This document shows, in pieces, positions 8,839 through 58,880 of a stretch of 64,000 nucleotides of DNA (positions are counted from its first letter, which is position 1; every line of letters starts with the position of its first letter). Source of the stretch: Lysobacteraceae bacterium (lineage in GTDB: Bacteria > Bdellovibrionota > UBA1018 > JAGTJX01); NCBI GenBank assembly GCA_023657465.1, contig JAGTJX010000004.1, positions 154,904 through 218,903 of the forward strand, in the 5' to 3' direction. A model generated the notes under the pieces. The model did not search any database, had not been told where the DNA came from, and worked only from the letters and a program-made list of their open reading frames with translations. Position numbers and translations under genes: made by a program.

Positions 8839-8842
8839 GCCT

Positions 8843-12387: not shown

Positions 12388-14622
12388 ATGTTAGATTTAT
12401 TAAACCCAGCACAGAAACAGGCTGCTCTGACAACAGAGGGGCCGCTCCTCGTTCTTGCTGGTGCGGGCTCAGGCAAGACTAAGATGCTCACCTCCAGGAT
12501 TGCTCATCTCATGGAATCGGGCCTTGCTAAGCCTCATGAGATTTTAGCAGTCACATTCACAAACAAAGCAGCAGGTGAAATGCGCGAGCGGGTAGAGCGC
12601 TCGATGGAGAAGTCTCAGACTCCGGTTTATGGAATTCCTGAGATTGGAACCTTTCACGCAGTCTGTGGGAGAATTTTAAGACGTGAGGCAGGATTGCTAC
12701 CGTTTACTAAACCTTATGTGATCTACGATGATTCGGATCAACTCAGTGTGATTAAGTCTGTACTGAAGAAGCTCAATATTGATGACAAGGTAATGTCCGC
12801 TAAATCTTTCCAATATGCTATTGATCGAGCGAAGTGCGATGCAGTTGAGCCAGAGGATATGCAAGCGCCTGGATTCTCTCCATTCGAGCGAGTACTGAAG
12901 GATGTCTATCGTCAGTACAAGGAAGACATGATCGGGAATAACGCGATGGACTTCGGAGAGATCCTCTGTGCAACTTACCGAATCCTGCGCGATCATCCAG
13001 AAGTCCGCGCTCGTTATCAGAAGCGGTTCAAATACATCCATGTCGATGAGTATCAAGACACGAACCGAGTTCAGTATTTGATTTTGAATCTCCTGGCGCA
13101 TCCTTCTCAAGGAGGGCATGGGAATATCTGTGTCGTAGGAGACGAAGATCAGTCCATCTACAAGTGGCGTGGAGCGGATATTAAGAATATTTTGGATTTT
13201 GAAAAAGATTATTTTAATGCTCAAGTCGTGAAACTCGAGCAGAATTATCGATCGACTAAGACCATCATCAGTGCAGCTTCTGATCTCATTGGGCACAATA
13301 CCCAGAGGAAGAATAAGAAACTCTGGACAGACAATGAAGATGGCTCACCGATTGTTCAACTGCAAGTCGCAGATGAGAGAGAAGAAGCCGATGTTGTCGT
13401 AAAAGAGCTCGCACGACTTGCTCGAGATGAGAATCGCTCGATGGATGAGTTTGCGATCTTCTATCGCACGCATGCTCAATCACGACAATTCGAAGATTTT
13501 CTCAGACGAGATAAAATCCCTTATCAGGTTTTAGGTGGTCTTAGATTCTACGACCGAAAAGAGATCAAAGACATTCTCTGTTATTTGAGGCTCATCATCA
13601 ATCCACTAGATAGCGTGAGTGTGAAGCGTGTGATCAATACCCCCGCTCGTGGAATTGGTAAGACGACTGTCGATAAACTCGAAGCACTAGGCAATGGCAA
13701 CCTCTGGTTGGGATTAGAAGCTGTGATGGGAGATCCGTCCCACTTTCCTGCCAAGACGTCGAAGAAGCTCACAGATTTTGCTCAGATGATTCTAGGTTGG
13801 ATCCATGTATCAGCATCCATAAAGGTATCTGAGATGTATCACCGAGTTTTGGATGACATTCAGTACGTAAAAGCTCTCAAAGACGAAGGTACCGAAGAAG
13901 CTGATGCTCGTATCGACAACTTAGAAGAGTTCGATACGCTGGTTGCTGAGTTCGAAGAAGAAGTGTTCAGTGAAGAAGAGAAGCTTGAAGCAGGACAAGC
14001 GCTTGTGCAGTTCTTAGAGCGCACCACGCTCGCATCGGTGACTGATGATGAAGGTAAGATGGTTTCTACAGTGAAGCTCATGAGTCTACATTCATCAAAA
14101 GGCCTTGAATATCCTGTCGTCTTCTTAGTGGGGATGGAAGAAGGCTTGTTTCCATCGATTCGTGAGGGTCAAGAGAAGGATCCAGAAGAACTCGAGGAAG
14201 AGCGCAGGCTTTGTTATGTGGGAATGACTCGTGCACGTGAACGACTCTATCTCAGTCACGCCAATATACGTAGGCAATGGGGTCAGTTTAGTTATCAGTA
14301 TCCATCGCGGTTCTTAGAAGAGATTCCACAGTCTTTCAGGATCATGAGAGATTTCGCTGGTTCAAGGAAGACGGAATCATCCTCTTACACATCATCTTAT
14401 TCGTCTCAAGGTTACCAGGCTCCTAAACTCAGCGTTGTTCCTACTTATGAATCGAGCGACTCCAAGTTTATTGGCAAGCGATTCGATCACCCGGATTACG
14501 GCTATGGAAAAATTGTCAGTAGCGAAGGAAGTGGAGATACGCAGAAGGTGATGGTCGAGTTTAAGGATCAATCTAAGCGCAAGTTTCTTTTCCGCTATGT
14601 GAAGAGTTTCTTAGAAGATTGA
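12388..14622 (+). CDS. uvrD: UvrD/PcrA/Rep-family ATP-dependent DNA helicase
   Basis: Walker A AGAGSGKT, helicase motifs and the C-terminal UvrD Tudor-like tail (GKRFDHPDYGYGKIV). Confidence 0.9.
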   Translation: MLDLLNPAQKQAALTTEGPLLVLAGAGSGKTKMLTSRIAHLMESGLAKPHEILAVTFTNKAAGEMRERVERSMEKSQTPVYGIPEIGTFHAVCGRILRREAGLLPFTKPYVIYDDSDQLSVIKSVLKKLNIDDKVMSAKSFQYAIDRAKCDAVEPEDMQAPGFSPFERVLKDVYRQYKEDMIGNNAMDFGEILCATYRILRDHPEVRARYQKRFKYIHVDEYQDTNRVQYLILNLLAHPSQGGHGNICVVGDEDQSIYKWRGADIKNILDFEKDYFNAQVVKLEQNYRSTKTIISAASDLIGHNTQRKNKKLWTDNEDGSPIVQLQVADEREEADVVVKELARLARDENRSMDEFAIFYRTHAQSRQFEDFLRRDKIPYQVLGGLRFYDRKEIKDILCYLRLIINPLDSVSVKRVINTPARGIGKTTVDKLEALGNGNLWLGLEAVMGDPSHFPAKTSKKLTDFAQMILGWIHVSASIKVSEMYHRVLDDIQYVKALKDEGTEEADARIDNLEEFDTLVAEFEEEVFSEEEKLEAGQALVQFLERTTLASVTDDEGKMVSTVKLMSLHSSKGLEYPVVFLVGMEEGLFPSIREGQEKDPEELEEERRLCYVGMTRARERLYLSHANIRRQWGQFSYQYPSRFLEEIPQSFRIMRDFAGSRKTESSSYTSSYSSQGYQAPKLSVVPTYESSDSKFIGKRFDHPDYGYGKIVSSEGSGDTQKVMVEFKDQSKRKFLFRYVKSFLED

Positions 14623-14623
14623 A

Positions 14624-15526
14624 ATGAATAAATGGATCTTACTCATGGGAGCGTTCATGGTGATGAAGTTAGCACATGCTAAAGTAGTATTACCTTTTAC
14701 AGCCGCAAGCGGTGTGGTGGAGATGAATGGAAAATACTTGCTCATCTCAGACACGGATGCTGTGCTTTATGAAGTAGATAAAGCGGGCAAACTAGTCAAT
14801 GCATATACTGTACCCTGGGAAGAGTTATCCGATGATCCGGTCACGAGGAAGAAGAAGAAACCAGATTTTGAATCACTGACTTTTTTACCTAAGCATGATG
14901 GAGTAGGGTTTCAGGGATTACTCTTACTGCCATCATTCTCTAAGCCGAATAGAGTGCGCGCTGCTTATTTTAAGATCAATAAGTCTTCAGAAATCGTTAC
15001 ACCTCCAGAGATGATTGACCTCACTGAGCTAGAACCTAAGCTGAAGATGCATGCAGCCGAACTCAACATCGAAGGAGTTTCATTCGTAGGGAAGAAGTTG
15101 AGCTTATTCCAAAGGGGCAATGGGAAGAATAACTTCAATGGCGTTTTTGAAATCACTGTGTCTGCAGGAGATCTAATCACAGGTTCAAAGATCGGTAAGT
15201 GGCCAGTTAAATTTAAGAAAATCAAATTAGAAAAAGGATTCAGTATTACCGATGCATTGGATCTAGGATCAGTAGGTATTGTGCTTTCAGCTTGTATCGA
15301 AGAAACCGAAAATACCTATGATGACGGGAAGATCTTGGGATCTGGATTGTTTCTGTACAAGAATGGAAAAACAAAGAAACTGAAGCAGTTCGATGGTGAT
15401 CTGAAGATCGAAGGTGTTACGGGTACATACAATAAGAAAGCAAAGAAACTCAGTCTTGTGATGGTCGATGATCCAGATGATCATAGGAAGAAGAGTTTCT
15501 TTTTAGAAATGGAGATAGCACTATGA
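14624..15526 (+). CDS. Secreted hypothetical protein
   Basis: N-terminal signal peptide (MNKWILLMGAFMVMKLAHA). I recognise no confident domain. Confidence 0.5.
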   Translation: MNKWILLMGAFMVMKLAHAKVVLPFTAASGVVEMNGKYLLISDTDAVLYEVDKAGKLVNAYTVPWEELSDDPVTRKKKKPDFESLTFLPKHDGVGFQGLLLLPSFSKPNRVRAAYFKINKSSEIVTPPEMIDLTELEPKLKMHAAELNIEGVSFVGKKLSLFQRGNGKNNFNGVFEITVSAGDLITGSKIGKWPVKFKKIKLEKGFSITDALDLGSVGIVLSACIEETENTYDDGKILGSGLFLYKNGKTKKLKQFDGDLKIEGVTGTYNKKAKKLSLVMVDDPDDHRKKSFFLEMEIAL

Positions 15527-16509
15527 AGTCGATTCTTTCAGTTTTAATTCTGATTTTTGGGACACACCAAGTTCATTCACATCCGAAACACTCCAAGTAT
15601 CCTACGGACTGGAGAACAGATGAAGATGCTTATGAGTCGTATAGACCCAAAGGCAAAAGAACCTATAGCCATCAGCCTAAGAGCAGAATTCTAAAAGTTT
15701 ATGACTCTGTGTTTTTAAAAACAAAACTCTCAGAGTTCTCTGGTGCACTCCCGGTCAAAATCAATGGCAAAGAAGAGTACATTAAAGAGCGTGAGAGTCA
15801 GGCAGGGAAGAAGTTAGCCCGTGCGTATCTGAGAGATACTCTTGAAGGTTTTGGATACAAAGTGAGAGAGCAGGCTTATTCAAGCAAAGGAACAAACTTA
15901 ATCGCCGATAAAGAAGGCGATAACCCAGACCAAGTAGTCATCGTTTCAGCGCACATGGATAGCGTTGGAAATGCTGGAGCAGATGACGATGGATCAGGTG
16001 TGATCTCTGCAGTCTCAATCATGGGTGCACTTGCGAAAGAAAAACTTAAGTACTCGTTACGTTTTGTAGCGTTTGATGAAGAAGAGATGGGACTTGTAGG
16101 TTCTAGGGCATATGCAAAAAGCTTAGATACAAATAAGGAAGAGGTCATCGGCGTTTTTAATCTAGAGATGACTGCTTTCAATAAACGCAAAGACGGCGCG
16201 TTTCACGTGATTGACTGCGACCGTGATGACTCAGTATCGCTGACCAAGTCCATCGTGAGAGCGGTGAAAGATATTAAACTTCCACTCGTGAGAACGGAAG
16301 CCTGTACCGATCGTAGCGATCACGCTTCATTTTGGGATATTGAAGTGCCTGCTGTAGTCATCAGCCAAAACTTCTTCGGAGGAGATTCGAACCCTTGTTA
16401 TCACCGTGCTTGTGACAAAGTGAGCGACCAGCTCAATTTCGAGTACATGTCGAATATTACAGAGGCTGTGGGTTTGTCAGTAAAACGTGCTGTAATGGGT
16501 ACCCAATAG
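15523..16509 (+). CDS. Secreted M28-family zinc aminopeptidase
   Basis: Signal peptide plus M28 metal-ligand motifs HMDSV, DDDGSG, EEMGLVGS and SDHASF. Confidence 0.85.
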   Translation: MKSILSVLILIFGTHQVHSHPKHSKYPTDWRTDEDAYESYRPKGKRTYSHQPKSRILKVYDSVFLKTKLSEFSGALPVKINGKEEYIKERESQAGKKLARAYLRDTLEGFGYKVREQAYSSKGTNLIADKEGDNPDQVVIVSAHMDSVGNAGADDDGSGVISAVSIMGALAKEKLKYSLRFVAFDEEEMGLVGSRAYAKSLDTNKEEVIGVFNLEMTAFNKRKDGAFHVIDCDRDDSVSLTKSIVRAVKDIKLPLVRTEACTDRSDHASFWDIEVPAVVISQNFFGGDSNPCYHRACDKVSDQLNFEYMSNITEAVGLSVKRAVMGTQ

Positions 16510-16514
16510 AGGGT

Positions 16515-16554
16515 TTGACAACATATAATATATTAGGCATAATATATTATATGT
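16515..16554 (+). promoter_or_regulatory. Sigma70-like promoter with an overlapping 15-bp-arm palindromic operator; leaderless start of the XRE gene
   Basis: TTGACA at 16515-16520, 17 bp, then CATAAT at 16538-16543; the ATG at 16551 falls at the predicted +1. The perfect inverted repeat is ACATATAATATATTA-ggca-TAATATATTATATGT at 16521-16554. Confidence 0.55.
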
Positions 16555-17054
16555 TTGGAGCTCAAATTCGAGAGCAGAGAAAATCGATGAAATTGAGCCA
16601 GAGTGCTCTCTCAAGCCTCTCAGGAGTGAGTGTGCCAATGATCCAGCTCATAGAGTCTGAGAAGGGGAACCCTTCGATCAAGACATTGGTCATGATCTTA
16701 GATTCTCTCCACATGAAGTTAGTATGTAAGGAAGAAAAATTTAATTGGGATCGGTTTGCTAGGCATACAGCTCTACTTTATGAGCAAGGGACAGTCGAGA
16801 GAGCTTTCTGTACTGAGCAAACCCTAGTGAGTTGCCTCATTGCCGCAGGTGAAACCCTTGCTAAAGAAAAAGACCAGAGGAAGAAAGAAGCCTTGGAAAG
16901 TACCCTCTTGGCTCTTGAGTTGTACTACCCTGATTTCTATAGGCAGCTACTAGTTGAATCTTCAGCTTTAAAAAAACTATGTGCTTTCTCGATTTCTGGT
17001 CGACATATCAAGTTGAAGCGAATCGCTTTAGAGAGACTGAAGGACTACCTCTAG
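16551..17054 (+). CDS. XRE-family HTH transcriptional regulator with a C-terminal domain of unknown function
   Basis: N-terminal HTH_3 (QIREQRKSMKLSQSALSSLSGVSVPMIQLIESEKGNPSIKTLVMILDSL). The track ORF begins at a TTG at 16515 inside the operator, so the ATG at 16551 is preferred. Its stop overlaps the next start (TAGATG). Confidence 0.7.
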   Translation: MFGAQIREQRKSMKLSQSALSSLSGVSVPMIQLIESEKGNPSIKTLVMILDSLHMKLVCKEEKFNWDRFARHTALLYEQGTVERAFCTEQTLVSCLIAAGETLAKEKDQRKKEALESTLLALELYYPDFYRQLLVESSALKKLCAFSISGRHIKLKRIALERLKDYL

Positions 17055-17549
17055 ATGAAGACACTGAATGCAAAACTACTAGAGCAGTTTTTAAACCTAG
17101 TCATTAAAAAGCTTGAAGGTGAGTGGGTGCTACTAGGTGGCACTCTTATTCCCGCATTAGGGATCGAATATAGACAGACAGTCGATATTGATTTTGTACC
17201 TGCAGGAGAGATGACCAATAAAACATCATTGGAACTCATGGGCTTGGCAGAGAAGCTGGGAATTGCCGTTGAGTCGATCAATGCATCGGCGGGATTCTTC
17301 TTAAAGAAGATTCCAGATTTCTCTGAGCGTTTAGTCAGCCTGAAGAAGTCCAAGAGTTGCACAATCTACCGACCTACTTTGGATCTCTACCTTGAATTGA
17401 AACTCAATCGCGCTTCTCCCACGGATCTCACGGACTGCATACAATTAATCCAATATTGTAAGAAAATGAAACTAGCTGAAGAGTTAAAGTCTGGGAGCAA
17501 GTTTTTAGAGAAAAAAGACCGTAGAGATATTTTGAGATACTTTGGATAA
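17055..17549 (+). CDS. Minimal nucleotidyltransferase-fold protein (AbiEii/MenT-like motif)
   Basis: Motif LLGGTLIPALGIEYRQTVDIDFV fits the NTase signature hGG-x14-[DE]hDh. It is translationally coupled to the upstream XRE gene. Confidence 0.5.
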   Translation: MKTLNAKLLEQFLNLVIKKLEGEWVLLGGTLIPALGIEYRQTVDIDFVPAGEMTNKTSLELMGLAEKLGIAVESINASAGFFLKKIPDFSERLVSLKKSKSCTIYRPTLDLYLELKLNRASPTDLTDCIQLIQYCKKMKLAEELKSGSKFLEKKDRRDILRYFG

Positions 17550-17550
17550 T

Positions 17551-17646
17551 CCCTACCGGATTAAATGGACAATACTGAATAGAGTGATGGCAGCGTAGTA
17601 GTGAGTGTTCTTTCATAGAAATGTAAGTCCGTCTCTGACGGTTTTT
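17551..17646 (+). repeat. Intergenic repeat family copy R1 (core plus hairpin), ending in a Rho-independent terminator
   Basis: Core TACCGGATTAAATGGA at 17554-17569, then ...GTTCTTTCATAGAAATGTAAG, then CCGTC-tct-GACGG at 17629-17641 followed by TTTTT. It starts 2 nt after the NTase stop. Confidence 0.8.
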
Positions 17647-17783
17647 CACATCGTCTCAGTGATTGCGCTTGCGTATTGCCTCAAAAGTAAGTGTTACTTA
17701 TGAGCAGTAGGTCAACAGGAGTGAGAGTTAATGTAACTTAATTTAATTTAAAACACTGACAGCAAGAAACAATGTTAAAAAAT

Positions 17784-18533
17784 TCATCGTTTGATTTGCG
17801 ATACAACAATGTACCCTCGCGCTTTTGAAACACCCTTGTCTTGTGTATTCATTCCCTTAAAAAAGGTTTCGGTAGAAACCCAATAGGGTGTGTACCACTC
17901 GCGATCAACGTCTAAAACTAGTACTTTTTGTGAAGTTTTGTCATAAGCAGCGATCGGAGAAATATGACCCGCGGGTTCCGATTCCCCAGTAAAAACGGCT
18001 TGATCAAAATTAGCAATAATAAAGTCTTGATCTGTTTTCTCGTTCTCAGTGAAGTCACTTAGATAACCGTTTATAGCGCCTTTTTCTAGTGAATCGACGT
18101 GTATAACTTTAACTTGGTATTGATCTGGGAAATAAATATTGAGTGCTTTTTTTAAAACTTCTGAAAATCGATCCATTGAAAAGCATTTGTGATCTTTCAT
18201 GGCTTGGATCCATTCAGGGTCATTAACTTTTGCAACGATATCGGCTTGTGTAATGTTTTTTGTTTCAGAATCTAAGTCTTGCTTATTTTTAAGGGCATTG
18301 AAGATCGCCGCCATAGAGGCCGTTTGACACATGTTTTCTCCCTGCGGAACATAATGAAAAATCATAGCCCAAAAATCAGGAGCATGATTTTTTTGCAAAT
18401 ACTTATGATCGTCAATGGCTCTTAGAGTTTCAGGTGCGTATTTAGATTTAGAAAAAGCTTGGGGAGCAAGAGTGAAAGCTATTATTAGTAATGGACTAAA
18501 AAAAACGCTTGTTTGTTTTGATACGTATTTCAT
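17784..18533 (-). CDS. Secreted phytochelatin-synthase-like (papain-fold) peptidase
   Basis: Signal peptide plus a conserved PCS catalytic triad context: Cys in QGENMCQTASMAAIFNAL, His in PAGHISPIAAYD, Asp in KVLVLDVDREWYTPYWV. This closely parallels the cyanobacterial PCS-like enzyme. Confidence 0.8.
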   Translation of the reverse strand: MKYVSKQTSVFFSPLLIIAFTLAPQAFSKSKYAPETLRAIDDHKYLQKNHAPDFWAMIFHYVPQGENMCQTASMAAIFNALKNKQDLDSETKNITQADIVAKVNDPEWIQAMKDHKCFSMDRFSEVLKKALNIYFPDQYQVKVIHVDSLEKGAINGYLSDFTENEKTDQDFIIANFDQAVFTGESEPAGHISPIAAYDKTSQKVLVLDVDREWYTPYWVSTETFFKGMNTQDKGVSKARGYIVVSQIKR

Positions 18534-18566
18534 AGCTGTAAATTTTACTCATATTTCTTGGCATTG

Positions 18567-18738
18567 CAATACCAATACTCCCAATAAGCGGTTTAGTAAG
18601 TTTGGCGTCTTTTAAAACCCAGTCTACCGGATTAAATGGAAAATACTTCATAGAGGTTGGGTGGTTGAATTTGGAGCGTTAATCCATAGAAATGGAAGCG
18701 CCCGAAAGTTATTTACCTTCAGGCGTTCGTGATTTTTT
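18567..18738 (+). repeat. Intergenic repeat family copy R2 (5' module plus core plus hairpin)
   Basis: CCAATACTCCCAATAAGCGGTTTAGTAAGTTTGGCG is followed by the core TACCGGATTAAATGGA at 18625-18640, then GGGTGG..GGAGCGTT..TCCATAGAAATGGAAGCGCCCGAAAGT, ending GATTTTTT. Confidence 0.8.
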
Positions 18739-18760
18739 CATTAATATGAGCAGTTGGTGC

Positions 18761-19690
18761 TCAGGGTTTCACATCTTCTCCAATTTCCAGAATTTCAGCA
18801 TCATAGATGGTCTCGCTCATTAGATCGGGAAAATTGGTGATTGAATTACCGTATTCCTTGGAGCCAGGTAAGACACGTACTTGAATCTGTTGATCAGCGA
18901 CTTGGCTCGAAAGTTCGTAATCACGAATCAAAACTTTAACCATGTTTATTTTGGAGTCCGGCATTGGAAATGTTAAGTCTAACTTGTGTTGTGAGCCATC
19001 CAATTTAGGTAGCGTATTCAGCTGTTGGTTATAAAAATACTCATTAAGATCCTTTTTGTTTTGTTCAGAAAGATCTGCAGTTAAATGGATTTCAGAAACC
19101 GGCGGTAAGATACTACTTAGCATTTGTTTCCAAGTATCCGGTAGGAAGCTTTGGTCTGATTTCAGGTCAAAGGCAATAAATAGTTTCTCACCGTTGGTTC
19201 CCGTTAATTTATTCACACGAAGATGATCAATTAAGCCACTTGTACCTGGCTCGGGGAGGGAAAATAAAAGCATCGTGAGAAACGTGTAATTTGTTTTACC
19301 ATTTTTCTTAAGGAGCCCATTAGTTTTCTGTTTTTCCCATTCAGCAATTTTAGTGTTCTGAGTTTCAATGGTATTTGTCTGAGTGACTTTGGCAGTACAC
19401 TGGCCGACTGGAGGTATGATGTTTCCAGGATTTTTTGGATCTACGCCGTGAATATAACCTTCGTTTGTATTATCCTCTAAATCATCTTTTAGATCAGCAA
19501 CGCGAGTGGAATCGTTCATTGGACGTTTATCATTAATGTTGATCCTGTTCAAAACGTCATAGGGCAATTGAAGAAATATGGGTGACTCGCATTGAAAGTT
19601 TTTGAATTCAGTCTTTTGATGAACTTTGACGTGTTCCCCAGCATTTGCTGTGAGCGATACAAGGCATGTAAATATTAATACCTGCTTCAT
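18761..19690 (-). CDS. Secreted hypothetical protein
   Basis: Signal peptide MKQVLIFTCLVSLTANA (start moved to M6 of the track ORF). I recognise no domain. Confidence 0.5.
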   Translation of the reverse strand: MKQVLIFTCLVSLTANAGEHVKVHQKTEFKNFQCESPIFLQLPYDVLNRININDKRPMNDSTRVADLKDDLEDNTNEGYIHGVDPKNPGNIIPPVGQCTAKVTQTNTIETQNTKIAEWEKQKTNGLLKKNGKTNYTFLTMLLFSLPEPGTSGLIDHLRVNKLTGTNGEKLFIAFDLKSDQSFLPDTWKQMLSSILPPVSEIHLTADLSEQNKKDLNEYFYNQQLNTLPKLDGSQHKLDLTFPMPDSKINMVKVLIRDYELSSQVADQQIQVRVLPGSKEYGNSITNFPDLMSETIYDAEILEIGEDVKP

Positions 19691-19783
19691 AAAAATTCCT
19701 TCCACTCTAAATCCAATGGTTACCGAGCATTGTCCGAACCAAAACTCTTCAAATTAACAAGCAAATCAAACGTGTCTAATATT

Positions 19784-19806
19784 GCTCTATAGAGCACATA
19801 ATGTGC
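19784..19806. promoter_or_regulatory. Overlapping palindromes GCTCTATAGAGC and GCACAtaaTGTGC upstream of brnT
   Basis: Perfect 12-bp and 5+5 palindromes sit in the divergent intergenic region 19706-19953. They are candidate operator sites. Confidence 0.3.
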
Positions 19807-19918
19807 CAGGTTTTGCAGAGGTCTTTAGTGGGTAAAATTGAGAAGCAGGTTTGAACCCTGCCTATACCTAGAACAGCTGTCCAATGATTAGTCGGTCCAA
19901 ATATGCTTTATATGCTGC

Positions 19919-19947
19919 TTGACAATTGAGTACAAAAGGCACACAAT
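19919..19947 (+). promoter_or_regulatory. Promoter of brnTA (leaderless)
   Basis: TTGACA at 19919-19924, 17 bp, then CACAAT at 19942-19947; the ATG at 19954 lies 7 nt after the -10. Confidence 0.45.
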
Positions 19948-19953
19948 AGATTC

Positions 19954-20223
19954 ATGAGCTTTAAGTGGGATGAGGCTAAGAACAAGAAGCTAGCCGCTCA
20001 GGGCAGACCGGGATTTGAATTTTTCGTAGAGGCCTTTGATGAAGGGCTTATTTATTTCGAAGGCGAGAATACAAAACGTCCGGGACAGGGTGTTTTTGTC
20101 GTGATCATTAATGAGTATGCTCACGTAGTGCCTTATGAAGACAGAGGAGATCATCTCTTTTTAAGAACACTTTATCCATCCCGTAAGTGGCAGGTAGTAT
20201 ATGAAAAGGAGCAGAAGAAATGA
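19954..20223 (+). CDS. brnT: BrnT-family (DUF497, RelE/ParE-fold) toxin
   Basis: FKWDEAKNKKL...FEFFVEAF at the N-terminus and LFLRTLYPSRK at the C-terminus match DUF497. Its stop overlaps the next start (ATGA). Confidence 0.75.
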   Translation: MSFKWDEAKNKKLAAQGRPGFEFFVEAFDEGLIYFEGENTKRPGQGVFVVIINEYAHVVPYEDRGDHLFLRTLYPSRKWQVVYEKEQKK

Positions 20224-20531
20224 AAAATGCGAATAAAAAGACTTTAGCTGGATATGATCCAAAAAAAGTTAAGCTTTCTCGTGATGAGCAAGAGTTTGAA
20301 GACAACCTTGTGATCGCTGATTATTCTTCTAAGAGCTCAAAATCTGAACGTATGAACATTCGTTTGCCAGAAGAGGACTTGCTCAAGTTACAAAAGCTAG
20401 CGCTCAAGCATGGACTTCCCTACCAAACCTTAGTGGGCTCAGTGATTCATCGCTACGTTACTGATCAGTTGGTGGATTTAGAGGAAGCCAAAAAAATCCT
20501 TGCTGCGCCTCCTGCTAAAAAGAGAGCTTAG
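20220..20531 (+). CDS. brnA: BrnA-family antitoxin (RHH-like)
   Basis: MNIRLPEEDLLKLQKLALKHGLPYQTLVGSVIHRYV matches the BrnA consensus. Confidence 0.75.
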   Translation: MKNANKKTLAGYDPKKVKLSRDEQEFEDNLVIADYSSKSSKSERMNIRLPEEDLLKLQKLALKHGLPYQTLVGSVIHRYVTDQLVDLEEAKKILAAPPAKKRA

Positions 20532-20535
20532 ATTT

Positions 20536-20627
20536 TTACAGGAAATAACGTTCCAAACTTTGAAGCTGGTTTCTATTAAAGAATTGCCAATATTCCCATT
20601 AAGCTTTTTAGTTGATTTGGCGCTCAA
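20536..20627 (+). repeat. Intergenic repeat family copy R3 (5' module only)
   Basis: AAATAACGTTCCAAACTTTGAAGCTGGTTTCTATTAAAGAATTGCCAATATTCCCATTAAGCTTTTTAGTTGATTTGGCG is near-identical to 58812-58875 and related to segments of R2 and R5. It starts 5 nt after the brnA stop. Confidence 0.7.
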
Positions 20628-21488
20628 CTACTTCTTCCGGATTTCTTTGTAATAACCCTTTTCATAAATCTTCATGATCACTCTTTCCGTGAGAAGGGTG
20701 TCGAGACCTTTGCCACCTTGTTCGCGGATCATTTTGCGAGCCTCACTGCTACTGCCAGGCAACACAGATTCATCTTGAATGAAGATATCAGGCTTCGTAG
20801 AATCGTTGTTCTTGTATTGTACAGACTTACCATCGGTAGAGCGTGTGTAGCCTGCGAGAAAATCTGCAGGAAGCTTGGTGCTCACATCGAGAGTCATTGC
20901 AGTCACATCACCTCTAGGAATGAGCACCCAATGGGTAAGCGCGAAGAGTTCCTTCCAGTTTGGCCAAGTCGTAATACTGTTTAAAACATCCGTGCCCGCA
21001 ACCCAGAACAGATTCCTGGCACCGTTGGGATAAATTTCATTCAATCTCTTCAAAGTTTTGGAAGTGTCTTCGAAGATCTTCTCTTTGTATTCAAGATCAG
21101 ATGGACAGAGGTGGAAGACCTTAGCGGAGAGCTCTACCCATTCAGCACATCCATCAGTGGTGATATTGAATTCACTGTAAGGGATCTCTTCTAGCTTTAG
21201 AATCTGTGGCATGTCTTCCATAGCAAGTTTTGTGAGTTCGAGGTTCACGCCATTATTCTCTGATTCTTTCTTATAAGGCATCGCAACCATGAGAGTGCTC
21301 TCAAAGAAGTCTTCTCTGTGCATGAGTCTAGTAATCAGACGTAGATGTGACTTCGTCGGAGGATCGAAACTTCCTCCGAAAATAACATGAGTTTGAGAGG
21401 GAGCATCAGCTAGAGATGATGCTTTCTTAGGTATTGAGCTACAACTGGAAAGCGAAATGATGAGAAGTAAAAAATTTATTTTAGCCAT
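20628..21488 (-). CDS. NadD-family (cytidylyltransferase-fold) nucleotidyltransferase paralog with an N-terminal lipoprotein signal peptide
   Basis: Motifs IFGGSFDPPTKSHLRLI (HxGH region), WVAGTDVLNSITTWPNWKEL and IFIQDESVLPGSSSEARKMI all align to NadD. The N-terminus MAKINFLLLIISLSSC has a lipobox LSSC, and no alternative internal start exists. Confidence 0.65.
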   Translation of the reverse strand: MAKINFLLLIISLSSCSSIPKKASSLADAPSQTHVIFGGSFDPPTKSHLRLITRLMHREDFFESTLMVAMPYKKESENNGVNLELTKLAMEDMPQILKLEEIPYSEFNITTDGCAEWVELSAKVFHLCPSDLEYKEKIFEDTSKTLKRLNEIYPNGARNLFWVAGTDVLNSITTWPNWKELFALTHWVLIPRGDVTAMTLDVSTKLPADFLAGYTRSTDGKSVQYKNNDSTKPDIFIQDESVLPGSSSEARKMIREQGGKGLDTLLTERVIMKIYEKGYYKEIRKK

Positions 21489-22333
21489 TGTCTTACAGGT
21501 TCAACCCAAGCGTAGATGATGAAAAACCAAAACGACATGCGAGCAATGAGATCCCATCGCTTAGTCCTTAAATAGAGAAATGCGAAGAAGAGATGAAATG
21601 CTACTTGAGTCGTAGCAACAGGAATCCACCATCCCGTAAGTATCGATAATGCAATCATTACGGTAGAGATCAGAATCATAGCAACCCAAGTGCGTTCTGC
21701 ACCGATGAGTGAATGATAGTTCTTCAAGATCGAGTGACTGTGAGGATCGAGATTCTTCACGAGTTCTCTATTCATGAGTGTGAGTGCAAATATGCCACCG
21801 ACACCGATGATTTTTTCTTCGTTGATCATCGTCGGTTGAAACGCCGCCACAGAGAAGAGAGTGATCGGAAACAAAACACAATGATCTAAGAAGGAGTGAA
21901 TGAAGGGATGTCCTGAGAGAATGTGTCGGAGGAAATAGTTTTTACCCGCGATTCCCATCCAGGCACCCATCGCTAGGAGAGCGAGTCCAGCAGTAGAAAA
22001 CTCAAGAATGAAAAGGACGATGCCGAAAACCATAAGCCCCGCCCAGCAGAACCAGCGCGCAGCCTTAAGGTCGTTGAGTCTCACAATGCTACGAGCGAGT
22101 GGTTTCTGATGTTGGGTGCGTTGAACGTCTTGGAGATAGTCCCTGGTATCGATCTGTAGCCTAGCTAGAAAAAGAAAAAGCGTAATCCCAATCACCGATA
22201 TAATCGTTTCGGGAATTCCCATCGGGCTCAATTGGAGTCCAGCTCCAGTTAAAACGAGGCCTGCAATGAGGGGAATTTGCTCTTGGAGCGGAAATCGCTT
22301 AATGATGTACCGAGTCCAAGGTTTCACAGTCAC
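21476..22333 (-). CDS. Polytopic membrane protein, possibly a UbiA-family prenyltransferase
   Basis: About 8 TM segments and an Asp-rich motif IDTRDYLQD (DxxDxxxD) after TM2. Its GTG start is uncertain. It overlaps the start of the downstream NadD-like gene by 13 nt, suggesting an operon. Confidence 0.4.
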   Translation of the reverse strand: MTVKPWTRYIIKRFPLQEQIPLIAGLVLTGAGLQLSPMGIPETIISVIGITLFLFLARLQIDTRDYLQDVQRTQHQKPLARSIVRLNDLKAARWFCWAGLMVFGIVLFILEFSTAGLALLAMGAWMGIAGKNYFLRHILSGHPFIHSFLDHCVLFPITLFSVAAFQPTMINEEKIIGVGGIFALTLMNRELVKNLDPHSHSILKNYHSLIGAERTWVAMILISTVMIALSILTGWWIPVATTQVAFHLFFAFLYLRTKRWDLIARMSFWFFIIYAWVEPVRQWLK

Positions 22334-22341
22334 TTAATTTT

Positions 22342-23370
22342 ATGAGTATTTCTGCAATGAATCAAGATTTTTGGATAAAAGACGGAAAACCTGCACTCTT
22401 ACTCGCTCCGATGGAGGGTGTAACTGACGGTCCGATGAGATCGTTTTTCTCTGAAACACAGGCATTTACCCACTTAGTGACTGAATTCCTCCGAGTGAAT
22501 GACTCTCTCTACGGTGATCATGTGTTTCGTAGACACGCACCTGAATCTTCCAATGAATTCCGCACGAGATATGGAACTCCCGTCATTCTGCAGCTACTCG
22601 GTGGCGATGCTCAGAGATTAGCCGAGAACGCAGAAGCTGGAGTGAAGTGTGGAGCACGAGCAATTGATCTGAACTTCGGATGTCCTGCTCCTACTGTGAA
22701 CAGACATGATGGAGGCGCGACTCTGCTCAAGTATCCCGATCGCTTAAAAAATATTGTGAGGACTGTGAGAGATGCAATCCCAGCGCATATTCCCGTGTCC
22801 GCTAAGATGCGACTCGGTTGGGACAATATCAATGATGTGGATCGAAACTTCGATGCACTCATTGAAGGTGGAGTAAGCTCAGTCACCATTCATGGTCGCA
22901 CTAAGATTCAAGGCTACAAACCGCCAGCGTACTGGGAACCGATTGGTAGAATCCGTGCACGATCACCGATTCCAATTATTGCAAATGGAGAGATCTGGAC
23001 GTTTGAAGATTTTCTCCGTTGCCAAGATCAGACAGGATGCACGCACTACATGTTAGGTCGTGGAGCGCTTGCAGATCCAGGATTACCTGTGAGAGTCGCA
23101 AGAGCGCTAGGAATTGAGAGTGTCGCTTCAGTTCCGAAAGCTCAATTATTCGAAGATACCTATAATTCTCTCGACGCATCAGCATGGGTTCCACTCATCG
23201 AGAAGTTCTCGCGCGAGAGTGCCAAAATTTTTCCAAGTGAAGATTACACCGTCAGACGAGTGAAACAATGGATTAATCTCAGCCGCTTTGGCAGAAAGTT
23301 TCCATGGTTTGATCAGATTAAGACTGAGCTGAGTGTAGAATGTATTTTAAATAGGATGGTTGCTATGTAA
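22342..23370 (+). CDS. dus: tRNA-dihydrouridine synthase
   Basis: LAPMEGVTDGPMR FMN-binding motif and a TIM-barrel Dus family profile. Confidence 0.85.
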   Translation: MSISAMNQDFWIKDGKPALLLAPMEGVTDGPMRSFFSETQAFTHLVTEFLRVNDSLYGDHVFRRHAPESSNEFRTRYGTPVILQLLGGDAQRLAENAEAGVKCGARAIDLNFGCPAPTVNRHDGGATLLKYPDRLKNIVRTVRDAIPAHIPVSAKMRLGWDNINDVDRNFDALIEGGVSSVTIHGRTKIQGYKPPAYWEPIGRIRARSPIPIIANGEIWTFEDFLRCQDQTGCTHYMLGRGALADPGLPVRVARALGIESVASVPKAQLFEDTYNSLDASAWVPLIEKFSRESAKIFPSEDYTVRRVKQWINLSRFGRKFPWFDQIKTELSVECILNRMVAM

Positions 23371-23432
23371 CTATAAAAAAGATCAAGTTATGGCATTCAC
23401 AGAAGTCTGTGACCTAAGTAAGTTGATGTTTT

Positions 23433-24086
23433 TTAAACTTGGCCGTTCATCCAAGTGAGTTTGGCGTAGACGATCAATGTGATGAATAGGAAAATCCCAA
23501 TCCAACTCCAGTAAGCTTCCATGGCTTTGTTTTTCTTAGCGACTTTCAATGAGAAGGAAAATGCTTCTTCGTTTGAATTGAGATTACGTAGTGAGCGAAT
23601 GCTTGCAGGTTTACCAAACCCAACAAATCTAGGAACAAGTGAACAATACTTCTTGTAGGAGTCGCCGAAATATCCAATTAGTTTGGTTTCTTCAAATTCG
23701 ATGACGACGTCATAAACAAAAAAGAAAAACAGAGTGAGGGATACGCCAATGATCCAAGCATTCACAGAGACTACTCCACCCAGAGCAATGAGGAATGTTC
23801 CTAAGTAAAGTGGGTTACGTGTGAAGCGGTAAGGTCCACCGACAGAGAGGCTCGAGTCTTTGCGAAGGAAACCTGAAGCCCAGAATCTAAGTGTTGCACC
23901 CAAGAAGCCAATAGCGATGCCCAGTTTGTTTGGATATTGATTGGCAACTAATACTAACCAAACAGAAAACACCCATGCGATCAAAACGCGAACGCGACCT
24001 GAGAGGCTTTCGTTAACGATTTTTCGGAGTTGTTTGATAGCGGCCATAACCGTTCTGAATCTCCCAGATTTTGATGTGTCTGACAA
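23433..24086 (-). CDS. Isoprenylcysteine carboxyl methyltransferase (ICMT/PEMT)-family membrane methyltransferase
   Basis: GPYRFTRNPLYLG signature. The start is uncertain because the track ORF overlaps the upstream GT2 gene by 74 nt. Confidence 0.7.
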   Translation of the reverse strand: MSDTSKSGRFRTVMAAIKQLRKIVNESLSGRVRVLIAWVFSVWLVLVANQYPNKLGIAIGFLGATLRFWASGFLRKDSSLSVGGPYRFTRNPLYLGTFLIALGGVVSVNAWIIGVSLTLFFFFVYDVVIEFEETKLIGYFGDSYKKYCSLVPRFVGFGKPASIRSLRNLNSNEEAFSFSLKVAKKNKAMEAYWSWIGIFLFITLIVYAKLTWMNGQV

Positions 24087-24819
24087 CTCTGTAAACTGCT
24101 TCTAGTAAACTGATGATGACCCCGTGCATCCCGTCTCGGTAGGATTTGTAATAAAACAAATGCTTCAAAAACATGTGAGGAAACGAAAGGCTGAGCCTGA
24201 AAATATTAGTTCTGAGGCCACCTGCCACGTCTTCTTCTGCTTGAAGTGTAGAGTAACGATTGAGTTTGAATAAGAATTTGTCTGTATCCAAGTACAGGTC
24301 ATGATTGCAACCTTCTTGTAAGTAAACGGGCTCAGCAGGATGAACGAGGCGTTCGTGTATGCCACCTTCGAAGTGACAGTTTTTCTTGTTGTAGAAACGG
24401 TCGTGATAGATCGGGTTCCACATTCCGTATTTGATCTTCTTACCTAAGAAATACTCGAAGCGATAAATTCTGTAGCGAGTGTGCTCAGGGCCGCCATCAC
24501 GAGAACGCAACACTTCAATCTTAGCGATGAGCTCAGGTGTGCACTCTTCATCCGCATCTGCAAAATAAACCCAGTCATGTTTTGCAGCTTTAAGAGCTAC
24601 GTTTCTTTGTTCAGAGAATCCAAGCCAGGCTTGGGTGATGAAGCAAAGCTTGCCACTCCAAGCTTTTCCGGAAGCTTCACAGAGTTGTTTGGTTTTGTCA
24701 GTGCTCTCTGAATCTACTACTATGATCTCGTCTGCCCAAGTAAGAGACTGAAGGCATCGCTCGATATAGCGTTCTTCGTTACGAGTAATGATCAGAGCGG
24801 AGACAGGAGTTTTGCTCAT
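24013..24819 (-). CDS. Family 2 glycosyltransferase
   Basis: SALIITRNEE...VVDSESTD...DADE GT-A fold motifs. The start was moved to MSKTPVS at 24819. Confidence 0.75.
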   Translation of the reverse strand: MSKTPVSALIITRNEERYIERCLQSLTWADEIIVVDSESTDKTKQLCEASGKAWSGKLCFITQAWLGFSEQRNVALKAAKHDWVYFADADEECTPELIAKIEVLRSRDGGPEHTRYRIYRFEYFLGKKIKYGMWNPIYHDRFYNKKNCHFEGGIHERLVHPAEPVYLQEGCNHDLYLDTDKFLFKLNRYSTLQAEEDVAGGLRTNIFRLSLSFPHMFLKHLFYYKSYRDGMHGVIISLLEAVYRVVRHIKIWEIQNGYGRYQTTPKNR

Positions 24820-24823
24820 GAGT

Positions 24824-25921: not shown

Positions 25922-25939
25922 GTTATCGTTAGGAACTTT

Positions 25940-27314: not shown

Positions 27315-27337
27315 ATAACAATTCGGTAAGTGAGATT

Positions 27338-27751: not shown

Positions 27752-27816
27752 TCATTAGTTCGCTTCATGCGTGCTGATAATCAGTCTAAATCTCTAGTGG
27801 TTAAAATCTTTTGGAG

Positions 27817-37814: not shown

Positions 37815-37863
37815 TTGACATTAACGTCCATAACGTTAATAATGATAACGTTATGGACGTTAA
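37815..37863 (+). promoter_or_regulatory. Promoter plus perfect 18-bp-arm inverted repeat enclosing the start codon of the COG1373 ATPase gene
   Basis: TTGACA at 37815-37820, about 16 bp, then TAATAAT at 37837-37843. The repeat TTAACGTCCATAACGTTA (37821-37838), spacer ataatga, then TAACGTTATGGACGTTAA (37846-37863) places the ATG at 37853 inside arm 2. Confidence 0.5.
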
Positions 37864-55456: not shown

Positions 55457-55460
55457 CTTT

Positions 55461-55709: not shown

Positions 55710-55800
55710 ATAGTACCTGATTAAATGGAATTTCTATCTGGAAGAAGAGTGGGCGGAGTTGGGAGCGTTCTTTCATAGAAATGAAAACGCCCGAAAGTGA
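55710..55800 (+). repeat. Intergenic repeat family copy R4 (core plus hairpin)
   Basis: Core TACCTGATTAAATGGA at 55714-55729, then GGGCGG..GGAGCGTTCTTTCATAGAAATGAAAACGCCCGAAAGT. It is about 75-80% identical to R2 over ~95 nt. Confidence 0.8.
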
Positions 55801-55828
55801 ATTATGTAATCAGAGCAATGTAGTGCTC

Positions 55829-56764
55829 TTATTCATCATTTCGTCCTACTGAGTGAAAAGCAGACCCTGGCGCAAAAATTGCTAACCACCTGAGCCAGGC
55901 CGCTAAACCTGTTCCTTGGAATAGCCCTTCTGCCTCTCCTACTGTTGCAAGCGGAGTGAGGTTATCACCTGAAGTGATCAATGCTTTCAACGCAATGTCC
56001 GCATTGTATTCCGCTGTACTTAATGATTTCTGTGATTCAGAGCCAAACGCGGCTCCTTGTGCAGCTAGAGCGAGGTCTAGACGAATTTTGTTATTTTCAT
56101 CTCCAAAAGCATCAACTATGAAAGCCCGTTTTGGGTCTCTTCCTATTGTAGTGGATTTAAACTGATAGCCCAATTGCGAAAGCCATGCAGCTAATGCTGA
56201 TGATGTCTTTCTTGCATGAAAAGCAGTCATCCAAAAGTGGTAGGGCTTAGAGTTATCAAAGCTGATCTTCACATTTTTAGGAATTGAGTAAAGCTGCTGA
56301 AATCGTATTTGAGCGCTAGCATCGAGAACAGAAACACCTAATGCAAGAATTTGAAAAAAGATGCCTGTATATTTTCTTGTGTCTTTAAATGAAGATGAAA
56401 AACCGCGGAGTCTAAGGTTGATATTAGGGCCTCCAGTTGAGAGAATAGCTAACGCTTCCCAAGAGTATTGATATGCCTCATCGTCTGTAGCGCCTGCTTT
56501 CTTCATATTACTTTGCATATCTAAGAAAAAATCCGAGCTTCTAGTCAATGAACCAGTTTTAATTTTTTCGAAGATCTCAAGAGTCATCAGGCGAATTCCT
56601 TCAATCATGACAGGGTTTTGGTACATCCCTATGATTTCATTTAACAGAGTGATTGGAGGCTGAGAGGTTGGAGACATATCATTCAATATTTTTTGTAATG
56701 CCCTTTTACAGGACTCGATTTTAAGAAGAGACCCATGAAGAGTGCAGAGGCCATAGAGGTGCAA
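55829..56764 (-). CDS. Hypothetical protein
   Basis: 311-aa ORF, probably co-transcribed with the upstream secreted protein. Unknown family. Confidence 0.45.
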   Translation of the reverse strand: MHLYGLCTLHGSLLKIESCKRALQKILNDMSPTSQPPITLLNEIIGMYQNPVMIEGIRLMTLEIFEKIKTGSLTRSSDFFLDMQSNMKKAGATDDEAYQYSWEALAILSTGGPNINLRLRGFSSSFKDTRKYTGIFFQILALGVSVLDASAQIRFQQLYSIPKNVKISFDNSKPYHFWMTAFHARKTSSALAAWLSQLGYQFKSTTIGRDPKRAFIVDAFGDENNKIRLDLALAAQGAAFGSESQKSLSTAEYNADIALKALITSGDNLTPLATVGEAEGLFQGTGLAAWLRWLAIFAPGSAFHSVGRNDE

Positions 56765-56788
56765 AGCAGGTGGGCTGATCTTCTCTTT

Positions 56789-57283
56789 TTACTTTTTGAG
56801 GAAGGCTAAAAAGTACTCATAGAGCTCAGTTTTTTTCGCGGGAAGCGTTGTAAATTTTGTTTTTTTACTGAGTACCATTTCGATACTTTTCCAATCGATG
56901 GGATCTGGGTTTGAAAAATAAAACTGTTGATCAAATGCAAAACGTCGAATTTTCTCTATCGGAATCAATGATAGCTGCCATGTTGTGATTTTAGTGGATT
57001 TAAAAATTTTAGGATTAAATGTTTCAGGTGAATGAAAGATTGATTCAAGTGTTCCATCTTTGAGCCCAAAAACAGTATCTTGCCCAGATAAAACGACAGA
57101 TCGGGCAAAAGAACTGATCTCAATGTTTTTTATATCCTCTTGAAGAGTTGCTAAGGTTGTCTTACCCAGGAGACTTGAGCAAAGTTTTCTTGTTCCCTCA
57201 TAAATACCCCGCGGGTAAGAAGGTAAGTCTGTACCTGCAATAAGTGAGGTAAAGAATATAAGCTTTAGAATGATCAAGATCAT
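56789..57283 (-). CDS. Secreted hypothetical protein
   Basis: Signal peptide MILIILKLIFFTSLIAG. It appears AT-rich by eye. Confidence 0.45.
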   Translation of the reverse strand: MILIILKLIFFTSLIAGTDLPSYPRGIYEGTRKLCSSLLGKTTLATLQEDIKNIEISSFARSVVLSGQDTVFGLKDGTLESIFHSPETFNPKIFKSTKITTWQLSLIPIEKIRRFAFDQQFYFSNPDPIDWKSIEMVLSKKTKFTTLPAKKTELYEYFLAFLKK

Positions 57284-57424
57284 GTTTTATTATCGTCAAA
57301 ATGATAGCTAAACTAAAATGGTTTTCACGCATATCCATCAGTATCATTAGATTCTGGTGTGGATCTGTAACTTTTTATTGTGGACCTTCTATTCAATAAA
57401 ACTCATTCTGCGGCACTCACTTTT

Positions 57425-57580
57425 ACCGGAAATATTTGCTAATATTTTCATTAAGCGTTTTAGTTGATCTGGCGGTTTTTGAAATCGAGTCTACCTGATT
57501 AAATGGACACTCTATAATAGAGGAGGAGTGTCTTTTAGTGAACGATACTTCATAGGAATTTGAGGGACTTAATGCCAATT
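57425..57580 (+). repeat. Intergenic repeat family copy R5 (5' module plus core plus degenerate hairpin)
   Basis: TTGCTAATATTTTCATTAAGCGTTTTAGTTGATCTGGCG is followed by the core TACCTGATTAAATGGA at 57492-57507, then ..ATAGAGGAGGAGTG..CTTCATAGGAATTTGAGGG. Confidence 0.75.
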
Positions 57581-57883
57581 CAAAGACTCTTTTCTAAGGC
57601 TCTTACCTTCTTAAATCTTAGAAAAATTGGCCTGGCTGACCCTAGTCATTCCATTGCTCAGTGTTTGTGCCAAAACATTTTCCACTCAAAACGACAACAT
57701 CATTAAAAATACAAAAGTAATTTTCATTTTATTTACCCCTTATGAAAATTGCTAACCGTACTGAGTTATGATTGCGCGGCTTGCAGCAGCTCAATCACAA
57801 CTGAAAAAAGTCAAATGAGACACACCCAGTAACGTGTCAACTCAGACACTTTGTAAATAGTATACCAAAAATGATACCATATA

Positions 57884-58774
57884 ATGATGAGGCATTTGCT
57901 TATTCTAGTATTATCGCTTTCTAACGCTGGCTGTATAATACCGAGACTGAAAGGGAAATCTTCGTCATCTGTATCCACAACCTATTCCGCCACTCCTACA
58001 AGTTGCGATCGAACATCAACATCTATTTCTTGCCCCTCTGGATATGTAGCTGTGCCAGGAAATTCATGTTGGGGAATAAATGATTTTTGTGTAATGCAGT
58101 TTGAAGCCAAAAATGACGGTAGCGGCAATCCTTTTAGTCAGGATGTTACAATCCCTTGGAATTCAATTACTGCTGTTGCAGCAAAGGCTAAGTGTCAAAG
58201 CTTGGGTGCTGCGTACGATTTGATTTCAAACCCAGAATGGATGGTGATTGCAAGAAACGTTGAGAAAGTGTCGATAAATTGGTCGAGCGGTGTAGTGGGC
58301 TCAGGCTGCTTGATGAGTGGTAATTGCTTGAATGGAAATGCATGCAGCTATTCTACAGGTACCTCTGACTTCGGTCCTGTTGCTGGAAGAAATTCTAAGG
58401 CATCTCTTACTCTAAGTTCAGGAAGTTTAATTTGGGACTTTTCTGGAAATCAATGGGAGTTTGTCGACTGGTATCCAGGCTGAGCGCTCGACTTTGGTCC
58501 CACCAGTTGCCCGACAGGATGGATCGAGTTTCCTGCTGCGTTAGCTGCATGCGCAGCTTTAGTGTTTGATGACGTTATGCCAGGTAACCCATCCAATCAG
58601 CTTGCATCGACTTATGACTCCACTTATAGTCTTGGACAATTTACTGGTGGCCCTGGTGGCGCTTATCGAGGAGGTGGGTTTGGTTATTCCAACTCAGGGG
58701 TTTATGCATTGGCAATGGATCATGGAGGCGGAACCAACGCCAACTATGGATTTCGTTGCGTTTATCGCCCTTGA
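57884..58774 (+). pseudogene. DUF1566/FGE-sulfatase-fold (C-type-lectin-like) lipoprotein gene interrupted by one in-frame TGA
   Basis: Track ORFs 57884..58483 and 58562..58774 share a reading frame. The only stop between them is the TGA at 58481-58483, and the intervening codons (ALDFGPTSCPTGWIEFPAALAACAAL) are protein-like. Lipobox LSNAGC; motifs GNQWEFVDW and C-terminal GFRCVYRP are typical of the family. Confidence 0.5.
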
Positions 58775-58809
58775 TAAATAATTTTTTATGACTAAGAAAA
58801 AAGAAATCT

Positions 58810-58880
58810 CTAAATAACGTTCCAAATTTTGAGACCGTTTTCTATTAAGGATTTGCCAATATTTACAGTAACTTAGAAGA
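58810..58880 (+). repeat. Intergenic repeat family copy R6 (5' module only)
   Basis: AAATAACGTTCCAAATTTTGAGACCGTTTTCTATTAAGGATTTGCCAATATTTACAGTAACTTAGAAG is near-identical to R3 at 20543-20610. Confidence 0.7.

Follow-up and report, generated by a model that had tools for sequence, protein, structure and literature searches.

What does it mean that a single bacterial gene for a probably secreted phytochelatin-synthase-like peptidase lies between two direct copies of an intergenic repeat? The gene occupies the minus strand at 17784..18533 of a 64,000-nucleotide stretch of DNA (hereafter the window: contig JAGTJX010000004.1 of assembly GCA_023657465.1, positions 154,904 to 218,903) from a bacterium that GTDB places in the Bdellovibrionota. 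An earlier note on this DNA had proposed that the two repeats, R1 and R2, delimit a gene cassette, in the manner of integron attC sites or of repetitive extragenic palindromic (REP) and bacterial interspersed mosaic element (BIME) punctuation. R1 does lie 3′ and R2 5′ of the gene, in the same orientation and with their starts 1071 nt apart. Here we find that such repeats delimit gene modules in variable regions of low G+C content, and that they are best described as belonging to cargo-bearing non-autonomous mobile cassettes, of a form that differs from the one proposed, since R1 and R2 would be the same end of two adjacent units rather than the two ends of one.

The repeat is defined by a core, TACCKGATTAAATGGA (box 1), which occurs exactly four times in the window, always on the plus strand, starting at 17554, 18625, 55714 and 57492; shuffled sequence gave 0.91 matches even when three mismatches were allowed. 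A second box, CATAGRAAT, is invariant and stands 42-43 nt 3′ of the core in each of the four copies. We term the longer sequence around these boxes module C. Copy R1 (17551..17722) has box 1 at 17554-17569, box 2 at about 17614-17622, a plus-strand hairpin of CCGTC and GACGG followed by TTTTT at 17629-17646, and a third box at 17701-17720 that it has in common with R2 (ATGAGCAGTWGGT..CAGG). R2 (18624..18768) contains box 1, a box-2-centred hairpin that it shares with R3, an 11-bp hairpin at 18699-18725, and a hairpin, TGAGCA-N5-TGCTCA, that overlaps the stop codon of the open reading frame (ORF) 18761..19705. Likewise the last hairpin of R3 (55713..55830), AGAGCA-N6-TGCTCT, lies over the stop codon of ORF 55829..56764, and R4 (57491..57600) is the most diverged of the four. 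The repeats reported in the earlier note are thus real, but they are longer and more modular than it described, with the third box in R1 and R2 and, as set out below, an additional module 5′ of R2 and R4.

Pairwise blastn of the intergenic regions recovers the relationship between the copies readily (R1-R2, E = 8e-9; R2-R3, E = 6e-10; R2-R4, E = 5e-11). Overall they are 54-65% identical, with the core box invariant at 15 of 16 positions. Invariant boxes within sequence this diverged point to a sequence-specific function rather than recent duplication, and to a sequence-specific ligand. Furthermore, identity by pair (R1-R3 54%, R2-R4 62%, R2-R3 65%) shows no positional pairing across the two loci, and no two copies have an exact word longer than 17 nt in common, so that both recent duplication and present-day homologous recombination between copies are unlikely.

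Two other readings of the boxes were rejected. Minus-strand ORFs that cross box 1 read ...PFNPV... or ...PFNQV..., but a small coding ORF does not fit: synonymous positions in the box do not vary, and the one base that does is non-synonymous. Pairing of box 1 with box 2 was set aside because it is good in R2 but not retained in the rest. Two of the minus-strand ORFs across box 1 (73 aa, 17428-17649; 51 aa, 18496-18651; ...PFNPV...) are probably repeat artefacts that could be mis-called as genes.

Small-word blastn of the first locus against the second identified two further modules. Module B, TTGCCAATATTCCCATTAAGC.TTTTAGTTGATTTGGCG, lies directly 5′ of module C at R2 (18574-18608) and R4 (57430-57474), with a third copy at 20578-20622, and module A, AAATAACGTTCCAAAYTTTGA..TTTCTATTAA, lies 5′ of module B at 20543 and 58812. 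At the two joints a 15-nt linker separates B from C, 10 of the 15 positions being identical between 18609..18623 and 57476-57490. On the plus strand the order of modules is the same in both loci: C, genes, B+C, genes, A+B. Four plus-strand segments of the A/B type can accordingly be delimited: a degenerate module A with module B at 18534..18608, similar to 20578-20622 and 57430-57474; modules A and B at 20543..20627 (D2); a degenerate module A with module B at 57396..57474; and module A with a partial module B at 58812..58871 (D2 prime). The segment 18534..18608 coincides in part with the DNA upstream of the peptidase gene and takes in a minus-strand sigma-70-like site, TTGCAA-16-TAAAAT.

Where module A is intact, the A+B segment resembles an inverted, diverged copy of module C. 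The 14-mer TTCTTTMATAGAAA has three exact occurrences, on the plus strand in R1 and R3 and on the minus strand inside module A at 20570-20583, and the chance expectation of a match to it in shuffles is 0.00. In a joint alignment the first ~75 nt of module C align collinearly with both A+B copies in reverse complement. Summed over the 16 left/right pairs, the local-alignment score was 310 in inverted orientation vs 241 in direct orientation, with shuffle controls giving 250 +/- 11 (mean +/- s.d., n=500) and a maximum of 291. The top non-self nhmmer match of the module C profile in the window is the 20543..20627 region on the minus strand (E 0.35, whole window), and 58812..58871 shows inverted similarity to R2 with z = 7.2. 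The signal stems from the two ends in which module A is intact. A similarity to CTTCCGGATT found 3′ of D2 was rejected as a repeat feature, as it is native CTP_transf-like coding sequence that is also present in the close relative described below.

All of these modules are confined to two islets. Islet 1 (17550..20627, 3.08 kb) lies between the stop codons of convergent nucleotidyltransferase (NTase)-like and CTP_transf-like genes, and islet 2 (55713..58871, ~3.16 kb) between convergent genes for an ABC-F protein and an HI0933-like flavoprotein. Their G+C content is low, 38.7% in islet 1 vs 44.6-45.7% in its flanks and 40.0% in islet 2 vs 45.8-46.6%. The edges of the islets coincide with the edges of the modules to within 1-5 nt: in islet 1, module C starts 3 nt past the NTase-like stop codon and module B ends 5 nt short of the CTP_transf-like stop codon. 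As the earlier note had supposed, the repeats are placed non-randomly with respect to genes, at islet edges and between gene groups only. Profiles of module C and of A/B found no other copy in the window with nhmmer, the ~58 kb beyond the islets having none. Comparing 25 intergenic regions all against all likewise placed no module in the ~20 that lie outside the islets.

Islet 1 can be compared with the corresponding locus of a close relative. A 21-kb contig of it, L125, reached through the neighbouring M28 peptidase, is collinear with positions 6863-26713 of the window, with proteins 72-95% identical. In L125 a single nucleotide separates the stop codon of the M28 gene from that of the convergent CTP_transf-like gene, with the flanking genes conserved, and the whole of 17550-20627, comprising R1, the peptidase gene, R2, an orphan ORF, a small gene pair and A+B, is absent. 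GlmU-like and glycosyltransferase genes are found in the window as in L125. The earlier note had envisaged that one repeat copy might be left behind as a scar where the gene is missing; the L125 junction is clean, and no module occurs anywhere in its 21 kb.

For islet 2 the relatives reached via the ABC-F protein are at most 61% identical and speak to the adjacency of the flanking genes rather than permitting a close comparison. In the distant relative L133 the ABC-F and HI0933-like genes are separated by 1.2 kb that hold one unrelated gene, and in the window by 3.8 kb. The 456 nt that lead from the ABC-F stop codon to R3 (55257-55712) contain no ORF and have a terminator-like hairpin at 55434-55454; they may be core DNA or part of islet 2.

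The surroundings of islet 1 also vary between the window and L125. Directly beside the islet stands a toxin-antitoxin-like pair of genes, HTH_3 and nucleotidyltransferase-like (weak AbiEii/DUF6036 matches; 16510-17549 in the window, 8862-9912 in L125), which is shifted by ~1 kb: together with its palindromic promoter region, TTGACAACATATAATATATTAGGCATAATATATTATATG, it lies downstream of the M28 gene in the window and upstream of it in L125. Proteins near the islet (14624-23370) are 63-80% identical to those of L125 and the GlmS-like protein, CLC channel and UvrD a few kb off are 88-89% identical, so that divergence is locally raised around the insertion site.

The genes inside the islets are mostly orphans or have no assigned family, and in both islets they lie on both strands while the orientation of the modules is constant. 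Downstream of R2, islet 1 carries a minus-strand ORF of 314 aa with a signal-peptide-like N-terminus (18761..19705), which matched only itself among 5.8 billion proteins and no Pfam, NCBIfam or PHROG family, followed by two overlapping small plus-strand ORFs (89 and 103 aa, 19954..20531) that are toxin-antitoxin-like: the second matches CopG_antitoxin weakly (E 5e-4, short of the curated cut-off), and the pair has its own promoter-like site at 19919-19947. In islet 2, two minus-strand ORFs (311 and 164 aa, 55829..57283) had no family match in Pfam, NCBIfam and PHROG searches, and a plus-strand lipoprotein-like ORF of 199 aa is followed by one of 70 aa (57884..58781), with no Pfam match and, at best, weak similarity to a PHROG whose function is unknown. 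The last two (the latter ending ...GFRCVYRP) may be one gene broken by a frameshift. There is no homology between the cargo of the two islets by blastn or tblastx; the modules alone match.

The phytochelatin-synthase-like gene is the exception in having a clear family, and the earlier description of its product as a papain-fold enzyme of the phytochelatin synthase type with an intact triad is borne out. The predicted protein of 249 aa matches Pfam Phytochelatin, PF05023, with E 2e-26 and 92.9 bits (cut-off 24.9), and the structurally solved Alr0975 of Nostoc with E 1e-16 and ~30% identity over the aligned part. Cys69, His190 and Asp208 are each present in 16 of 18 aligned homologues (17 of 19 counting the window protein), and the N-terminus, read by eye, is a probable signal peptide. 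Like Alr0975-type proteins, from which it differs in its signal-like N-terminus, the predicted enzyme has a single catalytic domain with a Cys/His/Asp triad. Two homologues, P0090 and P0093, have Ala, Val and Glu at the catalytic Cys, His and Asp positions and look catalytically dead. Homologues of the peptidase at 45-67% identity are found in five unrelated contexts, where intergenic gaps are tight; for the closest of them, P0002 (67%), the comparison was of gene layout alone. At the homologue loci for which DNA was compared (L121, L122, L123/L124, L190, L191), DNA similarity ends at the coding sequence and no modules are present, indicating that the modules are not the gene's own regulatory DNA.

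Taken together these features lead us to favour, tentatively and at somewhat less than even chances, a model in which the repeats are the conserved ends, acting in cis, of small mobile gene cassettes that are non-autonomous and mobilised in trans. According to the model there would be four units, with presumed termini at 17551-18608, 18624-20627, 55713-57474 and 57491-58871. In each, the left end would be module C, ~100-170 nt with the two invariant boxes and hairpins; the cargo would be 0.75-1.6 kb of genes on either strand; and the right end would be (A)B, ~60-90 nt, an inverted diverged copy of C where A is intact. At each of two chromosomal sites, both flanked by convergent core genes, a pair of units would have come to lie head-to-tail. 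This arrangement generates the B-linker-C joints at R2 and R4, and means that each islet has C alone on its left side and A+B alone on its right. The phytochelatin-synthase-like gene would then be the cargo of unit 1, the orphan ORF and the toxin-antitoxin-like pair that of unit 2, the 311- and 164-aa ORFs that of unit 3, and the lipoprotein-like ORF with its 70-aa neighbour that of unit 4. R1 and R2 would each be the left end of one of two adjacent units, and R2 would abut module B (18574-18608) as the right end of unit 1. The units would be moved in trans by a transposase or recombinase whose gene lies elsewhere and which recognises the invariant boxes. Transcripts of the cargo may in addition be terminated or stabilised by the hairpins next to its stop codons.

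Several observations weigh against this model. The modules have been seen in one genome only, with four copies of C and four of A/B and none in the other sequences searched. Among the 50 proteins of the window there is no integrase, transposase or other recombinase domain, RecA being the only recombination protein. The inner right ends (18534-18608 and 57396-57474) individually show no significant inverted similarity to C, and the tips of left and right ends are asymmetric, the right end having ~25 extra outer nucleotides. The model offers no explanation for the near-equal lengths of the two islets. Each edge of islet 1 has the 4-nt sequence CTAC (17553-17556 and 20628-20631), which the empty site of the relative contains once, but 4 nt can recur by chance, and CTAC also opens the conserved module C in R2 and R4, so that it could be either a target-site duplication or simply part of the conserved end. 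Finally, the history of islet 1 could be one of loss in L125 instead of gain in the source lineage, although the scar-free 1-nt junction, the low G+C content and the orphan content make loss the less parsimonious course.

The searches for further copies covered a range of collections. A genome-collection scan with the core, at 15 specified bases too short a pattern for this purpose, returned 120 chance matches in unrelated taxa, none of them with box 2. The two-box pattern had no matches in viral and metagenome collections, and the module A pattern none in viral contigs; the module B pattern had five viral matches, in each of which the fit to the A/B profile is confined to the surroundings of the pattern itself (nhmmer E 5e-5 to 0.02). 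Likewise, blastn of both islets against phage and plasmid collections gave no match.

The same layout can be read in other ways. The B-linker-C joint might be a large imperfect-palindromic site of a tyrosine or serine site-specific recombinase, with circular one-site cassettes integrating near its centre by an integron-like logic without attC. Such a system, which we regard as unlikely, predicts half-sites at the islet edges and full sites inside, and is compatible with a right arm that is an inverted copy of the left, with units all in one orientation, and with cargo stop codons that abut module C at R2 and R3, as ORFs lie beside attC. However, conservative crossover within the linker should preserve it, and the 15-nt linker is at neither chromosomal junction of islet 1; moreover arms of ~75 nt are far longer than usual core sites, and no recombinase gene is found nearby. 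Nor does the attC analogy of the earlier note hold, as a regular-expression search of both strands found no RYYYAAC/GTTRRRY pair (the R″/R′ pair) 50-140 nt apart at any repeat copy, no single long imperfect hairpin spans any module C copy, and the window encodes no integrase. The only attC-like core pair within the islets lies inside coding sequence and folds weakly (-5.6 to -6.9 kcal/mol). The window contains no tRNA gene. A reading to which we assign a similarly small probability sees the modules as regulatory RNA or DNA cassettes, terminator or stabiliser hairpins with a leader or promoter, which accompany accessory genes and, through recombination between copies, favour their shuffling, as do the promoter-early stem-loop (PeSL) cassettes of T4-type phages. 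Hairpins do follow the stop codons of three minus-strand cargo genes, one of them terminator-like on the minus strand, module B of the R2 and R4 joints lies upstream of minus-strand cargo genes, and the box-2 hairpin is kept, with pairing in 79% of cells on the plus strand and 71% on the minus strand vs 25-56% in slid controls (a comparison with a single compensatory pair and, at four sequences, little statistical power). Consensus scans nevertheless found no promoter-like site common to the module C copies in either orientation and terminator-like sites in just two of the four; the modules all point one way, with cargo genes on either strand; the strand that G-U asymmetry favours differs between hairpins; and exact matches of 17 nt, the longest between copies, are too short for efficient RecA-dependent homologous exchange. 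A PeSL-like regulatory role is possible as a secondary function of the hairpins beside cargo stop codons.

That the two loci are a decayed old segmental duplication, or the product of repeated local duplications, with conserved stretches that are leftovers without present function, would explain the shared module order and similar spans, but we consider it quite improbable: the loci have no homologous cargo, copies at equivalent positions are no closer than others, sharply invariant boxes in ~60% identical sequence argue for selection, and the inverted relation of the ends would not be expected. It is very improbable that module C represents plus-strand genes for small or antisense RNAs ending at downstream hairpins. 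All copies do share the plus strand, R1 has a canonical small terminator on it (CCGTC-TCT-GACGG-TTTTT), and the box-2 hairpin pairs slightly better there. Yet Rfam 15 gave no match at the gathering score across the whole window and none over a module at E <= 5, RNAalifold found 6 pairs only in the module C copies at -1.9 kcal/mol, essentially no consensus structure, the z-scores of single-sequence plus-strand folds range from -0.4 to -2.2, and no upstream promoter is conserved. Folds of the copies on both strands give differing multi-hairpin structures. Modules A and B, their inversion relative to C and the match between module edges and indel boundaries would moreover go unexplained. Lowest of all, and close to negligible, we rate genome-wide extragenic punctuation of the REP/BIME type, the other analogy drawn by the earlier note. 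The copies are intergenic, with hairpins, and at gene ends, but they occur in the two islets alone and in none of the 33 kb compared from two relatives (one of them, 21 kb, close); they are modular units of ~100-230 nt rather than palindromes of 20-40 nt; and there is no RAYT-like gene among the window proteins.

If the units are indeed non-autonomous mobile cassettes, their architecture appears, by analogy, closest to that of mobile insertion cassettes (MICs), in which passenger genes lie between inverted repeats derived from insertion sequences or transposons with no transposase of their own, as in MIC231 of Bacillus cereus and the TnXax1-type elements with effector genes of Xanthomonas (PMC4337579). 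Both have ~1-2 kb of passenger genes between conserved non-coding ends, which in the window resemble one another in inverted orientation where module A is intact, no transposase inside, secreted proteins among the cargo and an empty site in a close relative. Unlike those of MICs, however, the ends here are long (~85-170 nt), asymmetric, only ~60% alike and without symmetric tips; the window units have no known cognate insertion sequence or transposon and no clear target-site duplication, and the inverted similarity of the inner units is not significant. Integron cassettes, including attC clusters without an integrase, are comparable in being promoter-poor units of one or a few genes in one orientation, with conserved but diverged sites between them, ORF stop codons abutting the site and no integrase beside the array. 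The window units differ from them in that they lack both RYYYAAC...GTTRRRY core pairs and a single long imperfect hairpin, their sites divide into two dissimilar halves at the ends of the array, and their cargo is on both strands. PeSLs are small conserved terminator/promoter cassettes beside orphan genes in hyperplastic regions of T4-type phages, where they mediate indels and mini-circles (PMC2839356, PMC4122927). They resemble the modules described here as small composite conserved non-coding cassettes that lie beside orphan genes and bound indels between close relatives, but the modules have no common promoter or terminator signature, are too diverged for homologous exchange and reside in a bacterial chromosome, not a phage.

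Some further features of the window stand apart from the repeat family. Three self-complementary intergenic stretches (37819-37865, 47 nt, 89%; 23374-23435, 62 nt, 71%; 1338-1369, 32 nt, 81%) are probably bidirectional terminators that are not related to it. Synteny with L125 stops at ~26.7 kb (from 26713 in the window and 17115 in L125), beyond which the window has three small ORFs without a family match (26823-28450) and L125 has genes for an aldehyde dehydrogenase, a glutamine amidotransferase/peptidase C26-family protein and an alcohol dehydrogenase; this is a second variable spot, without repeat modules. The source metagenome-assembled genome (G+C content 44.7%) is labelled 'Xanthomonadaceae bacterium' at NCBI, a label that looks wrong: its nearest protein relatives (P0001, P0102, P0103) are labelled Oligoflexia, Bdellovibrionales or Bacteriovoracia.

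Our work shows that direct repeats on either side of a gene can come about when two neighbouring units each supply one and the same end, which shifts where the boundaries of a cassette are drawn. If the modules are cassette ends, they would provide a sequence handle for accessory gene units in an uncultured and probably predatory lineage whose variable genes are unannotatable orphans, as well as a handle for finding the enzyme that moves them and for asking whether repertoires of secreted hydrolases are exchanged as cassettes. It is possible, though we think it doubtful, that they belong to a previously undescribed, integron-independent cassette system of Bdellovibrionota-like bacteria, in which small units, many of them with secreted proteins, carry long asymmetric ends and are arranged head-to-tail between convergent core genes, with a dedicated enzyme encoded elsewhere. 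Interest in such a system would grow if the module family and the enzyme turn up genome-wide; were it real, it would give these bacteria a new way of shuffling their repertoire of secreted proteins.

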